The notes under the pieces were generated by a model, which was not told where the DNA came from, searched no databases, and saw only the letters and a list, made by a program, of their open reading frames with translations. From IMG/VR virus record IMGVR_UViG_3300037067_003729: a stretch of DNA of 20,000 nt. One strand, written 5' to 3'. The stretch is from an uncultured virus (IMG/VR IMGVR_UViG_3300037067_003729) (lineage: Duplodnaviria; Heunggongvirae; Uroviricota; Caudoviricetes). Made by a program: the position numbers and the translations under genes. Below, piece after piece: positions 3,548-19,950 of the stretch (its first letter is position 1; each line of letters opens with the position of its first letter).

Positions 3548-4111
3548 ATGATTTTAATAGGTGCAGGACAAAATAGTTTAGATGTCCTTTCTTTTATACC
3601 TCACCAAGAGGTATTTTTTATTGATGATTTTAAGGTTGGGAAATTTGAAGGATATAAGATTTTAGGAACCGTTGACGATCTGTGTCAAGGGCGAATACCT
3701 ATACGATACCCTGTTTATAATGCTGTGGGAAGCGTAGGCGACAACACTACAAGAAATCGAATATATGAGAAACTGAAAAAGGCTGGCCTTCGGGTACAGC
3801 CTTTAATATTTCCATCACATATTTGCCATAACGTGCAAATCGGTGAAAACGTTGTTATCGGATTGGGTTCTCAGATACACCATGATTGCATGATAGGTGA
3901 ATCGTGCATTCTCAGTCCGAGAGTTACTTTATGCGGGGCCGTGACACTCTCTGATAACGTTTTCCTTGGAGTGGGTGCAATAATCATTCAGGGTATCACG
4001 GTGGGTAAAAATGCCATTGTAGGCGCAGGCAGTTTAGTTATAAGGGACGTTCCGGACAATGTTACCGTTGTGGGAAATCCAGCAAGGATTATTGAGAAAA
4101 CTGAGGGGTGA
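3548..4111 (+). CDS. NeuD/PglD-family sugar O/N-acetyltransferase (hexapeptide left-handed beta-helix)
   Basis: ILIGAG and FFIDD N-terminal Rossmann-like part, IHHDC catalytic-His region, hexapeptide repeats, and C-terminal GAGSLVIRDVPDNVTVVGNPAR. Confidence 0.88.
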   Translation: MILIGAGQNSLDVLSFIPHQEVFFIDDFKVGKFEGYKILGTVDDLCQGRIPIRYPVYNAVGSVGDNTTRNRIYEKLKKAGLRVQPLIFPSHICHNVQIGENVVIGLGSQIHHDCMIGESCILSPRVTLCGAVTLSDNVFLGVGAIIIQGITVGKNAIVGAGSLVIRDVPDNVTVVGNPARIIEKTEG

Positions 4112-11665: not shown

Positions 11666-12382
11666 ATGGAGATAATCGCAGAAATCGGCCTGAATCACAT
11701 GGGTGATCTTAACAAGGCACTTGACATGGTAAAAATAGCAAAGGAGTGCGGCACGGACATTGTAAAATTTCAATTCTACTATACAGATATTTTGTGTGTT
11801 AACCGGAATTGCTTTGATTCATTCAAACTGCTGGATAAAATACGTCTACGGCCGCAATGGATTCCAATACTCGCCGACGAATGCAAACGGCTGAATATCG
11901 AGTTTTTATGTACATGTTTTGATAAGTTTAGCGCAGAGGAAATAAACCCGTTCGTTGAGAGATTCAAGATAGCAAGCCCGGAAGCAACGAACATTAATTT
12001 CATAAAACAAGTTGCAGGATTCGGGAAACCGCTTATTATTTCAACCGGCAAAATAGACGACGATCAGATCAAAGACATTCTCAATGCGGTTGATGTTCCT
12101 GTTACACTGCTTTACTGTGTCTCAAAATATCCGTCACAGCCAAGCGATTACAAACTGTCTGAGATCAAACGGCTGAAGAAAAAATTTCATGTTCCGGTTG
12201 GGTTATCGTGTCATTGCGCCGGAATTAAGAATGCGCTTGACGCGGTTGACATGGGCGCGGACATACTGGAGAAACATTTCAAAGTTGACGAAAAATGCGT
12301 CGACGCTGCCGTATCGTTATTACCAGCAGATTTTACTAAAATGTGCGAAATTATAAGGAGGAACAATGGAAAATGGAATTGA
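11666..12382 (+). CDS. neuB: NeuB/PseI/LegI-family nonulosonic acid (N-acetylneuraminate-type) synthase, TIM-barrel only
   Basis: Motifs IIAEIGLNHMGD, DIVKFQ, FKIAS, KPLIISTG, CVSKYP, GLSCH and EKHF. 238 aa with no C-terminal SAF/antifreeze-like domain. Product sugar unknown. Confidence 0.9.
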   Translation: MEIIAEIGLNHMGDLNKALDMVKIAKECGTDIVKFQFYYTDILCVNRNCFDSFKLLDKIRLRPQWIPILADECKRLNIEFLCTCFDKFSAEEINPFVERFKIASPEATNINFIKQVAGFGKPLIISTGKIDDDQIKDILNAVDVPVTLLYCVSKYPSQPSDYKLSEIKRLKKKFHVPVGLSCHCAGIKNALDAVDMGADILEKHFKVDEKCVDAAVSLLPADFTKMCEIIRRNNGKWN

Positions 12383-12521
12383 TGTAATTTTTCAGTACAT
12401 TACCTTTAACCCGGTGGAGATAAACGGGAAACAGACCTTTGACAATATGTTTATTGTGCTTGATGCTACCGACAAAATCGGGGCCGGCATGGTGTACGCG
12501 CAGGAGGTACAGAATGTTTGA
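12366..12521 (+). CDS. 51-aa hypothetical protein (not in ORF track)
   Basis: AAGGAGG RBS at ~12355-12361. MENGIDVIFQYITFNPVEINGKQTFDNMFIVLDATDKIGAGMVYAQEVQNV overlaps the neuB stop and the maf start. Confidence 0.65.
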   Translation: MENGIDVIFQYITFNPVEINGKQTFDNMFIVLDATDKIGAGMVYAQEVQNV

Positions 12522-14118
12522 AAGGAACTGTAAGCTTTTAAGTGAGTTTCAGTCGGAAGCATTTAAAAAGATTCAAACCCCTGAAACCACATTGATATTT
12601 ACGGAACAAGTCTTGTTCGGATTGAATGAAAATCAAGCAGTTGACAATTTGGTGATAAATTCAGATGATAAAATGCTGACTGTCGGAACTTCAGACAATG
12701 AAAGTTGGCTGCAAAACGTCAATCCTGACATGCATACCATTATTGTGTACGGACTTGGATTGGGAAACCACATAGAGTCACTAATAAAGAAATATCCGGA
12801 CAAAAAAATAATCGTCATCGAACCGGATAAGAGACTGTTTTACCATGCTATCCAGATACGAGACTTTGAATTCATCGTAAAAAACTGCACTATTTGGCTG
12901 GATGAACCTATTGACCTTGTCAAGGCGAAGATACATGAAATGATAACCCATCCATTGGCAAGAGGAATCATGCTGTTGCCGTTTTATGCGAACGTCTACC
13001 AGGATTATTTTAACCTTTTGCTGAACAGTATAAAGCAAATAATCAACGATTATGCGGTAATGGTGAATACTAAGTGGTGTCTTGTGGACAAGTGGTATGC
13101 CAACCGGATAATCAACGCCCGTAAACCCTCATACAGCGGAAAGGCTTTGATAGACGCACATAAAGGATTGCCGGGTATCATTGTCGGGGCGGGGCCGAGT
13201 CTGCAGACACAATTAGAAAAATTAAGGGAGATTCAAGGAAAGGCCGTTGTGATCGCCGCGTCAACCGCAATGGAAATTTTGCACTCTCACGGCATAAGAC
13301 CAACTTACATGATCGCAATAGACCAAGACCCCATTACGTCAGGCGGGTTACATGAAAACCTCGACTCTGACGTCCCTTTGATCTTCGACACGCAGATAGC
13401 GCAAAATTCACTGAATTACACTGGCCCCAAGATACAGGTACAACTTAATGTCAATCGATACACAACCGTTGAACTGCCTATATTTGAGTCTGGTCCCTCG
13501 GTGGCAAATGTTGCCCTTGATGTTTTACATAAAATGGGGTGTAGCCCGATTCTTATAGTAGGAATGGACATGTCTTATACAGACAACAAATTATACTGCG
13601 ACGGGACAAAGTTCAATCAAGACATTCAAGAAACCAACTTATTACAAATGATCAACAATAAAGGTGAGATGTGTTTTACGGAACCGTCGTTTGTATCAAT
13701 GCGAAACTGGTATGAAGATTACGTGAACCGTGTGAAACTGGAAGTCTACAATTGCACTGAGAGGGGATTGGTAATCAAGTCTATCCCGAATAAAGTTTTG
13801 GACGAATTTACTTTTGACAAAGAGGTCATCATGCCTGAATTTGAATTAATAGATGGCGCAAAGGATGATTACAAGACTGAGTTATTGGAAATAAAGGACT
13901 TTATTGAAAAGAACAGATCTGTCAACCCTGCGTTTCAAAAGTGCAAAGCGTGGATTCTGATAGACGAATATGTTCAGCCTGACATTTATATTGCGGAAAT
14001 CCGAAGTGAAGGACGCATAAAGAGGGGAATGGATATCAAAGAATCCGTCAAGATGTTTCAAGAACAGCGAATTAATCTTATTTTAACCGCTGTGGAGAAA
14101 TTACTTAATTTATTTTAA
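12514..14118 (+). CDS. maf: Motility-associated factor (Maf, DUF115/MAF_flag10) family glycosyltransferase
   Basis: True start is ATG 12514 (RBS AGGAGGT). Motifs IVYGLGLG..IIVIEPD, IIVGAGPSL, VIAASTA..L...GIRP...IAID, GPSVAN and MGCSPILIVGMDMSY, as in flagellin nonulosonate transferases. Confidence 0.87.
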   Translation: MFERNCKLLSEFQSEAFKKIQTPETTLIFTEQVLFGLNENQAVDNLVINSDDKMLTVGTSDNESWLQNVNPDMHTIIVYGLGLGNHIESLIKKYPDKKIIVIEPDKRLFYHAIQIRDFEFIVKNCTIWLDEPIDLVKAKIHEMITHPLARGIMLLPFYANVYQDYFNLLLNSIKQIINDYAVMVNTKWCLVDKWYANRIINARKPSYSGKALIDAHKGLPGIIVGAGPSLQTQLEKLREIQGKAVVIAASTAMEILHSHGIRPTYMIAIDQDPITSGGLHENLDSDVPLIFDTQIAQNSLNYTGPKIQVQLNVNRYTTVELPIFESGPSVANVALDVLHKMGCSPILIVGMDMSYTDNKLYCDGTKFNQDIQETNLLQMINNKGEMCFTEPSFVSMRNWYEDYVNRVKLEVYNCTERGLVIKSIPNKVLDEFTFDKEVIMPEFELIDGAKDDYKTELLEIKDFIEKNRSVNPAFQKCKAWILIDEYVQPDIYIAEIRSEGRIKRGMDIKESVKMFQEQRINLILTAVEKLLNLF

Positions 14119-16181: not shown

Positions 16182-16439
16182 TTAAGCCATCCAAATTTCA
16201 AAGGCGCCTCTGGTAAGTTTATCAACACACATATATACACCCTCACCCTTACCAAATTCCATCTGGCTATCTTCTGTTCCGTTAGGGAAATAACGCATGT
16301 ATCCATCTCCGACATCAGCAATATCAACATCCCTATACCCTTCCTCTATTACTGTTTTGACAAATTCTTCTTTGGTTTTATATTCTGACTTTTTGCCAGC
16401 AATATCGCCTGTTGGTTGTAGTGTTATTAATCCTTTCAT
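16182..16439 (-). CDS. Hypothetical phage protein (85 aa)
   Basis: ATG 16439 lies 6 nt after AAGGAGG; YMRYFP...G.G.Y....RGAFEIW. Confidence 0.7.
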   Translation of the reverse strand: MKGLITLQPTGDIAGKKSEYKTKEEFVKTVIEEGYRDVDIADVGDGYMRYFPNGTEDSQMEFGKGEGVYMCVDKLTRGAFEIWMA

Positions 16440-16460
16440 CTCAATCCTCCTTCTATTCAC

Positions 16461-16529
16461 CTATAAACCCACACTGCCTACATTCCGCATATAATCAGCA
16501 TATACAGATACCACCATCCACAACAGCAT
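16461..16529 (-). CDS. Possible 22-aa leader peptide MLLWMVVSVYADYMRNVGSVGL
   Basis: GAGGGTG upstream of the ATG; stop abuts the next gene's leader motif. Very short, so uncertain. Confidence 0.3.
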   Translation of the reverse strand: MLLWMVVSVYADYMRNVGSVGL

Positions 16530-16558
16530 TACGCCACCCTCGGCTGTGTGAGTTTATT

Positions 16559-16860
16559 TGAGGAAGACGGGTTATCACCCCGCATGCAGCTTGTAACCTT
16601 TCGGTATCGGGAATTTAGTGGCACGCCCCCGACAAGCGACCCTACTTACTAAGGAACTTCCCCATGTCATAGTATTAGGTGGTAGGCAGCACTCTCTCTT
16701 ATCGAATAGGCTTTCTCCAGTTTCTATTCCTTTACAGGCCCGTCGGCTAAATCGGGTTTATCCTGCCAATGACCAGCAAGGTTTTAACCTTGTACATCGT
16801 AACCCATTGTTCGGTAAATTTGCTGCATTGTTACTCCGAAAGGACTTTTACTACCACCTA
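16559..16860 (-). ncRNA. Candidate ~300-nt two-domain structured RNA / 5' leader
   Basis: Begins at the predicted TSS of a TTGACA-17-TATACT promoter. Nested helices with G-U pairs only on the minus strand and an ACC-GAAA-GGU tetraloop; no convincing ORF. Confidence 0.6.
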
Positions 16861-16865
16861 TATAC

Positions 16866-16894
16866 AGTATAGTCCTATTTACGGTTGCTGTCAA
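16866..16894 (-). promoter_or_regulatory. Near-consensus sigma-A promoter TTGACA-17-TATACT (leftward)
   Basis: -35 at 16894-16889, -10 at 16871-16866. Confidence 0.85.
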
Positions 16895-19196: not shown

Positions 19197-19241
19197 TAAC
19201 CAATATTATATTTGCAATATATGACAAGAGGTGATAGGGTT

Positions 19242-19484
19242 ATGGTTAATATAGAAAGTAACGTGAGTGAATTAAAATTAATAATAGGGGGAGCTGGAAA
19301 AATGGAAGCTGTAATTGATAATAGAGTGCTTACCATGAGTTCAGCAAAAGTTGAGACAGAATCTATTTGGGATGAATTGTGTGATTGGTGTACGTCTGAG
19401 GCTAAAAAAGCAGGTATAACAGAAAATTATTCTAATGATCTCTTGCTACAAGTGAGGAAATATCTTGATGAAAGCAGTCGTTGA
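19242..19484 (+). CDS. Putative antitoxin for the downstream PIN toxin
   Basis: Small gene overlapping the PIN gene; W.EL......AKKAGITE....LL..VR C-terminus. In-frame ATGs at 19242 (GAGGTGA) and 19302 (AGGGGGAG) both have an RBS. Confidence 0.6.
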   Translation: MVNIESNVSELKLIIGGAGKMEAVIDNRVLTMSSAKVETESIWDELCDWCTSEAKKAGITENYSNDLLLQVRKYLDESSR

Positions 19485-19950
19485 CACGAACGTGTTTGTG
19501 AATGCTATATTTCATGGTGACAAGTGGTCAAGAGAAGTACTAAACAGACACATGAACGAAGAAATAACAATTTCAATGAATAAGGAATGCCAGACTGAAC
19601 TTCTGGTGATTTTTCTTATTTTTGTTGCCGAAAAATTTAAAACAGATAAGCGACAACTATACAGATACTATGGAAAATTAACAGATGCTCTATGGACAAT
19701 GGAAAGAACGCCGTGCAAAACCAGAACTAAATATAGTATTGATAACGGAGATAATAAATTTATTAATTGTGCTATTGATAGTAATGCCGAATATATAGTT
19801 ACTTATAATAGTGATCATTTATGTGGATTTGAAGAACAGATAAAAAAGGATCACGGAGTAAACATAAAAGTCTTAACTCCATACAATTTTATTATAGAAG
19901 TAAATAAATTTCGATTTCGCGATACTGTTAATTCAAACAGAATAAGGTAA
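19468..19950 (+). CDS. PIN-domain (PIN_3 / VapC-like) putative toxin ribonuclease
   Basis: KAVVDTNVF, a TE in the first helix region, and DNGDNKFINCA....AEYIVTYN.DHL. Confidence 0.85.
   Translation: MKAVVDTNVFVNAIFHGDKWSREVLNRHMNEEITISMNKECQTELLVIFLIFVAEKFKTDKRQLYRYYGKLTDALWTMERTPCKTRTKYSIDNGDNKFINCAIDSNAEYIVTYNSDHLCGFEEQIKKDHGVNIKVLTPYNFIIEVNKFRFRDTVNSNRIR

Follow-up and report, generated by a model that had tools for sequence, protein, structure and literature searches.

Phage RNAs that come from tRNA regions have been described in T4 and in PAK_P3. According to the cited sections of these reports, T4 RNA C and RNA D and PAK_P3 sRNA2 are made late, in real tRNA clusters of lytic phages (PMC4933390, PMC3014915, PMC9697503). 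In the record of Pseudomonas phage PAK_P5 (L149), the sRNA2 row of the supplement to PMC4933390 falls on a tRNA-shaped element, where it spans the T arm and the 3' acceptor strand. The RNA that it overlaps there, at about 1946-2064, is framed like a tRNA and has a large interior; at about 1455-1528 the same record has a tRNA-like gene, anticodon CCA, that is not annotated and was missed by ARAGORN. Other relevant cases are not tied to phage tRNA clusters. The sections cited here describe mascRNA of MALAT1 as a tRNA-like module cut from a longer transcript (PMC4919913, PMC10424219), the YrlA Y RNA as a tRNA mimic of bacteria on which tRNA enzymes act (PMC10424219), and, alongside allo-tRNAs and polycistrons of irregular tRNAs, tRNA-like genes of Clostridia and phages that are irregular and partly inactive, some of them in tandem (PMC5389517). 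They also state that RNase P cleaves any RNA presenting a stack of T arm and acceptor, with a dispensable D loop (PMC4919913), and that precursors lacking CCA are matured by RNase Z (PMC4919913, PMC10424219).

We analyzed a 20,000-nucleotide stretch of DNA (the window) that forms the final 20 kb of a complete 67,361-bp record of an uncultured virus bearing direct terminal repeats. On the minus strand of the window, behind a near-consensus promoter, is a non-coding leader of 420 bases (Table 1). It occupies a gap of 500 bp; on one side lies a short operon of five small ORFs on the minus strand, and on the other a series of small genes on the plus strand. The middle part of this leader, domain 2, is predicted to resemble a tRNA. 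Unlike the T4 and PAK_P3 RNAs, it belongs to a temperate phage without full tRNA genes, and to a leader that is presumably early. The 67,361-bp genome contains an integrase-like ORF, and ARAGORN called no tRNA genes in it. Terminase relatives with 35-43% identity were found in 6 of the 399 Clostridia-class genomes scored, from which we infer that the host is probably clostridial.

Table 1. Features of the leader region and the putative early operon, in window coordinates.
Feature	Position	Strand	Remarks
Sigma-A type promoter	16866..16894	-	TTGACA-17-TATACT; putative start site near 16859
Domain 1	16676..16860	-	P1 closing helix 16860-51/16685-76, P2 hairpin 16844-35, P3 16826-21/16691-86
Single-stranded linker	16664..16675	-	would-be RNase P 5' leader; conserved in G003, similar in G030
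Domain 2, tRNA-like unit	16559..16663	-	105 nt; secondary structure only
Acceptor, 7 bp	16663-57 with 16566-60	-	
U8-U9	16656-55	-	
D-like arm, 4-bp	16654-40	-	
Extra 6-bp helix	16637-32 with 16594-89	-	encloses two hairpins
Anticodon-arm-like hairpin, 12-nt loop	16631-08	-	inside the 6-bp helix
GAAA hairpin	16605-596	-	inside the 6-bp helix
Variable loop, 5-nt	16588-84	-	
T-like arm, 5-bp, non-canonical 7-nt loop	16583-67	-	stacked directly on the acceptor
3' acceptor strand, alternative pairing	16561..16568	-	8-bp pairing with the Shine-Dalgarno sequence
Discriminator A	16559	-	no CCA after it
Domain 3, long hairpin	16463..16557	-	16557-46 with 16474-63, probability 0.88-1.0
Shine-Dalgarno sequence of first early gene	16446..16451	-	sequence
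First gene, 85 aa, no family	16182..16439	-	relatives in L002 and L003 without the leader
Remaining operon ORFs: 60, 93, 59 (Lar restriction-alleviation family) and 49 aa	15312..16133	-	

A preliminary description of this locus had proposed a novel RNA of about 300 nt on the minus strand. Its promoter is present as described (16894-16866, 11 of 12 consensus bases), and is one of six promoter-like sites in the window that score at least 11/12. It had also noted that no U-tract follows, and no terminator-like site was found within 16559-16860. Given the host-type promoter and the gene content, we infer that the operon is a phage early operon. An 84-codon ORF on the plus strand (16618-16872) overlaps the leader region and is without support. 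Elsewhere in the window, a perfect TTGACA-18-TATAAT promoter at 14231-14100 on the minus strand points away from the lysis genes. Behind it come two hairpins, one of 9 bp on which an inner stem is stacked and one of 11 bp that is terminator-like, making up a candidate small RNA of about 90 nt. By eye, similar hairpin pairs occur at the place of this small RNA in two relatives (G014 and G032) and in L116.

All 12 of the originally drawn helices that we checked pair fully on the minus strand, and the claim of five G-U pairs on that strand was exact. Taken whole, 16559-16860 was not more stable than shuffled sequence (z -0.86, with 18 of 100 dinucleotide shuffles as good; z -1.04 in a second run), an outcome that the preliminary description had itself listed as refuting. 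Domain 1 alone beat its shuffles (z -2.3 and -3.0); among 45 background windows of 186 nt, one reached z -2.3 and none reached -3. Pair probabilities were 0.85-0.97 for P1 and 0.78-0.88 for P3, which stacks on P1 and encloses further hairpins. When the leaders of G032 and G014 were folded in isolation, the P1-P2-P3 layout was found with different letters, and the whole-leader fold of G032 favored another pairing over its P3 counterpart (probability 0.01). The helix 16799-803/16830-34 pairs in sequence and crosses P3. The 7-bp inter-domain pairing (16822-28/16584-90) likewise exists as sequence, and a pseudoknot is not supported because its 5' strand already has a 6-bp partner within domain 1 (16826-21/16691-86, 0.78-0.88). 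The structured leader itself stands; its extent was underestimated, since a third hairpin at 16463-16557 adds to its length.

Three roles had been suggested for the RNA, and two of them, an HK022 put-like antiterminator and a riboswitch- or ribozyme-like leader, seem to us highly improbable. In the case of HK022 put, downstream terminators are read through. The location at the start of the early transcript and the absence of a terminator from the leader count in favor, but the minus strand of the 1.2-kb operon gave no terminator-like site, so that a put-like element would lack an evident target there. The strand needed for the pseudoknot is taken up within domain 1, the relatives described below share no conserved core sequence, and the Rfam search gave no riboswitch or ribozyme match. 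In addition, a riboswitch or ribozyme is unlikely because the relatives wholly exchange the domain interiors and keep the framing helices. The third suggestion, a processed phage ncRNA, fits best.

A search of the region against Rfam returned no match at E≤5, and a narrower one a single chance match of 14.6 bits, in agreement with the earlier statement that no known family could be recognized. The preliminary description was right in placing a structured ncRNA absent from Rfam on the minus strand behind a strong promoter, and missed both domain 3 and the tRNA shape; for domain 2, its stems hold, and what it had seen as a closed helical region matches, position by position within the frame, the secondary-structure geometry of the top half of a tRNA without the anticodon loop and without CCA. 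There is no 5-bp anticodon stem with a 7-nt loop; the 6-bp helix opens into two hairpins. The T loop lacks the UUCRANY consensus. Domain 2 was not called by ARAGORN, which gave only noise at relaxed thresholds, and scored below the Rfam gathering cut-off for RF00005. A strict pattern for the tRNA top half, drawn up after the first units had been seen, matched once in the 67 kb on both strands, at domain 2, and was matched by 0 of 400 shuffles of the leader (7 of 400 for a lenient version). By folding energy, domain 2 alone did not stand out from its shuffles (z -0.5 and -1.0). The probability of the domain-2 acceptor was 0.92-1.0 in every transcript prefix ending before the ribosome-binding site. 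In equilibrium folds of whole leaders the acceptor dropped to 0.02 in the virus studied here (G000), 0.0 in both units of G003 and 0.01 in G032, and was 0.92 in G030; the values from prefix folds of these five units were 1.0, 0.0, 0.91, 0.5 and 0.46. In the window the acceptor is lost because of the 8-bp pairing with the Shine-Dalgarno sequence, and in G003 and G032 because similar neighboring stems cross-pair.

Compared with class II tRNAs (tRNA-Ser and tRNA-Tyr of Clostridia, RF00005), domain 2 shares the acceptor sequence, U8, the layout of the D arm and the 7 + 5 bp stack; it adds the 6-bp helix and the non-canonical T loop, and is without the 7-nt anticodon loop. The discriminator is A or C in the phage units and G in the tRNA-Ser matches. 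The cited section of PMC10424219 recognizes tRNA-like structures by a full or partial tRNA fold and by interaction with RNase P, RNase Z, the CCA enzyme or a synthetase. At the level of secondary structure, domain 2 can take up such a fold, and the equilibrium folds of the whole leader disagree.

Domain 2, with its predicted cleavage, is proposed to work like mascRNA, a module from another kingdom, and like further RNase P substrates that are not tRNAs, tmRNA and 4.5S RNA, which have other functions. We rejected tmRNA itself, since domain 2 has its G-U at pair 2 and not the conserved G3-U70, is 105 nt long versus about 350, has no tag ORF and was not called. Allo-tRNAs, in the cited part of PMC5389517, are 8/4 or 9/3 with an anticodon, and domain 2 is 7/5 without one. 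For a YrlA-type Y RNA, no Ro60/TROVE gene was found in any of five phage records (the control was positive in 2 of 14 genomes), and no Rfam Y RNA matched. Retron or other reverse transcriptase-linked RNAs and TnpB omega-RNA were set aside because PF00078 and PF07282 were found in 0 of 5 records, two of them incomplete, with positive controls. Group I and II introns and RNase P RNA were rejected on motif order and the lack of an Rfam match. In searches with the skipping-rope (RF02924), DUF2693-FD (RF02926) and salivarius-1 (RF03030) models, which had no positive control since the control genomes were also below cut-off, 0 of 5 phage records exceeded the cut-off for each model and nothing was found at the units. 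Skipping-rope RNAs, as described in part of PMC5737381, end in a terminator and seldom lie in 5' UTRs, whereas domain 2 lies inside a leader without a terminator. An attP tRNA fragment does not account for domain 2, because the attP-like piece of this genome lies elsewhere, outside the window (G000 about 850-933, L039); it is the 3' portion of tRNA-Leu(UAA) and neighbors the integrase. Another tRNA 3' piece follows the integrase in G014.

We located the matching region in relatives through scans for terminase, motif and Maf-like protein. G003, G030, G032 and G014 each have a near-consensus promoter at the matching place followed by a long structured leader; G003 and G012 are identical in this region and were counted as one, and several of the records are perhaps from related samples and give no measure of habitat breadth. 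The top-half unit was present, on the sense strand only, in four of five leaders examined (G000, G003, G030 and G032, not G014). Near the unit of the window, 26 of the 29 bases of the linker region (16658-16686) are kept in G003. The G003 leader has two units in tandem, one of them 8/5. One of the two scored 28.9 bits against the Rfam tRNA model (gathering cut-off 29, E 0.003) and has an 11-nt anticodon loop, and the T loops of both have the canonical consensus or are near-canonical. The G030 unit has a large insert in the D loop and a 4-nt anticodon loop, and that of G032 is reduced to 59 nt, with a single hairpin between acceptor and T arm. A sixth unit, in G014, lies between genes outside the matching leader and ends in ACCA; the T loops of G032 and G014 are, like that of domain 2, without UUCR. 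The G014 unit (L075 18220-18310) is the only one with G3-U70 together with ACCA, and with its A73 and encoded CCA it carries the marks of alanine charging, without a normal anticodon loop. Because the set of virion genes differs in G030, the element is not restricted to a single type of phage.

Contigs from two further runs, X1 and X2, agree with the window over domain 3 and over the 3' strand of domain 2 and diverge upstream; in one run-X2 contig, 421 bases are swapped for 388 different ones. At their loose ends, contigs from the runs have a compensated 5-bp hairpin in place of 16583-67, which adds another T stem with compensating changes. A motif of 11 nt near the beginning of domain 1 (16829-16840) recurs in another relative just 5' of the ribosome-binding block (run X1, 16468).

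Pairing of the acceptor and T arm is conserved. Counted over the units, which number only six, 41 of 42 cells are paired in the acceptor and 30 of 30 in the T stem; the T-stem count is partly circular. Changes on both sides occur at T-stem pairs 2-4 and acceptor pair 5, and acceptor changes are mainly one-sided, from G-C to G-U. In an alignment of five units, which left out G032 because it was misaligned, 98.3% of cells were paired and four pairs had changed on both sides. Slid controls gave 50-63%, and one of 500 shuffles was as high, a figure to be taken as support and not as a probability because relatedness by itself can lift sequences above shuffles of this kind. The middles, which lie between acceptor and T arm, range from 27 to 91 nt and are unalignable. 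These comparisons suggest that selection acts on the acceptor-T-arm part, the part that RNase P measures. We conclude that the structure of the leader RNA is real and selected, and that it is longer than and different from the one first described.

The units could also be the decaying remnant of a tRNA cluster, accompanied by short repeats that serve recombination of gene cassettes, with no present RNA function. Some of them are close to tRNA and others heavily altered, the folding z-scores are weak, and G003 has three recurrences of the motif found at the 5' end of the unit, one of which stands before an ORF and not a unit. However, decay would break stems at random, and here pairing survives two-sided changes while the middles are wholly replaced; we therefore consider it very unlikely. 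Small genes in the window are flanked by short shared blocks (15645-65, 15912-37, 16152-77 and 16444-68), and in G030 the stretch from the leader to the early genes contains three copies of a 14-nt motif (L085 about 2485-2950); both are possibly points of cassette exchange.

A model of the five units points to the likely ancestor. In 151 Clostridia-class genomes, its top 30 loci were 29 tRNA-Ser and one tRNA-Tyr, scoring up to 42.8 bits, with no family member among them, and the left-out G032 unit was found weakly (13.9 bits, E 3.5). Because the model ranks tRNA-Ser and tRNA-Tyr on top, domain 2 is, judged from sequence, a descendant of a class II tRNA, and as drawn it is unable to decode.

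When the region was compared by BLAST with cultured phages and plasmids, only short chance matches came back (E≥0.1). Among terminase-related records, most of which are fragments, 2 of 27 (G003 and G012) matched the region, at E about 1e-5. Pattern scans of viral contigs gave no matches in one case, only chance matches in two (28 of 28 and 3 of 3) and 3 true matches of 11 in another, and all 14 matches in genome contigs were due to chance. A scan of 1.12 Mb of loci yielded 18 distinct matches, comprising five family units, three true tRNAs and 10 apparent chance matches, 7 of these in L062 and L064. A metagenome scan with a divergent 100-aa gene recovered the phage itself and one fragment without the region, and no family member was found in the regions around the terminase in four of the six terminase-positive Clostridia-class genomes. 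We found no published description of the domain-2 family in a search that was thin on subscription papers and did not extend to large supplements of candidate RNAs (e.g. PMC8040213).

Domain 3 begins one base past the discriminator and extends to the ribosome-binding site. It was more stable than shuffles (z -2.4 and -2.0), and its 5' arm is kept, with different interiors, in G003 and G030 as well as in the X1 and X2 contigs. The gap from discriminator to domain 3 is 0-1 nt in G000 and G003 and about 12 nt in G030, and domain 3 is absent from G032. Across domain 3, an acceptor 3' strand left unformed or uncut could pair with the Shine-Dalgarno sequence and silence the first gene, acting as a translational switch in cis. 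This is quite unlikely in our view. The 8-bp pairing of 16568-61 with the Shine-Dalgarno region is there, and in ViennaRNA the masked fold is 2.1 kcal/mol more stable and prevails once the site is transcribed; but composition alone lets acceptor strands rich in C/U pair with ribosome-binding sites rich in A/G, the relatives show only about 4-5 bp by eye, and the folding model ignores coaxial stacking and the order of folding. The pairing thus either reflects composition only or serves as a switch.

We propose that domain 2 is a tRNA-derived punctuation mark for host tRNA-processing enzymes in the leader of the early operon, a reading that we hold with evenly balanced confidence. Host sigma-A polymerase would start near 16859, and the acceptor and T arm would fold during transcription. 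RNase P would cut before 16663, and RNase Z, proposed because the 3' end of domain 2 has no CCA, would cut after the discriminator at 16559. The predicted products are a domain-1 RNA of about 195 nt, the 105-nt tRNA-shaped RNA, which carries a swappable insert and could receive CCA, and the early mRNA. A hairpin at the 5' end guards an mRNA against RNase J, and the mRNA released here would begin nearly at the domain-3 hairpin and so would be shielded from 5' exonucleases. The RNase Z cut would also remove the strand able to mask the ribosome-binding site. Several points count against punctuation: the acceptor is mostly lost in whole-leader folds, domain 3 is missing from G032 and offset in G030, and the G014 leader has no unit. 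The non-canonical T loops of the window, G032 and G014 may weaken recognition by RNase P, RNase Z and the CCA enzyme. In an extended form, which we think quite unlikely, the leader would be gated by processing. The uncut 3' acceptor strand would mask the ribosome-binding site and the RNase Z cut would unmask it, capping the mRNA with a hairpin and freeing two swappable structured RNAs; early translation would then depend on host tRNA maturation, and the phage would sense the state of its host through RNase P/Z activity.

The freed tRNA-shaped RNA may itself be what matters, as a stable carrier of inserts or as a decoy for tRNA-attacking defenses or tRNA-binding proteins, and processing would then be biogenesis only. 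The tandem units of G003 would suit this, as would the G014 unit between genes with its own CCA, G3-U70 and A73, the inserts that are folded and different in each phage, the Lar-family gene in the operon and the abundant tRNA-region RNAs of T4 and PAK_P3 (PMC3014915, PMC4933390, in the sections cited). Anticodon nucleases, however, need an anticodon loop, which is missing or altered in every unit, the inserts have no shared motif, and the PIN-domain gene nearby in G000 has no comparable ORF, by eye, in the ORF lists of G003 and G030. We regard this explanation as rather unlikely.

Other observations concern the gene content of these phages. The PIN_3-domain gene (E 6e-12) follows a 90-aa ORF on the plus strand at 19212-19950 of the window, forming a pair like a toxin-antitoxin system. 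NeuB-family and Maf/MptE-like genes and an acetyltransferase-like ORF (recognized from its repeats) adjoin virion genes at 11666-14118 and 3548-4111, and more ORFs resembling sugar-pathway genes lie elsewhere in the 67,361-bp genome; the sugar genes near the virion genes are possibly a module for virion glycosylation common to the relatives. In G003 (L068 about 700-990), a branched stem of about 255 nt (z -2.1) is predicted where there is also an arginine-rich ORF of 58 codons, itself preceded by a good ribosome-binding site; the two overlap, and either the ORF is spurious or the region has a dual use.

The units described here add an uncatalogued family derived from tRNA-Ser/tRNA-Tyr to the tRNA-shaped phage RNAs that annotation tools have overlooked. 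The series from near-tRNA units (G003 and G014) to the minimal 59-nt unit of G032 reveals which part is kept. With their predicted cut sites, the units are ready substrates for deciding between punctuation and decoy.
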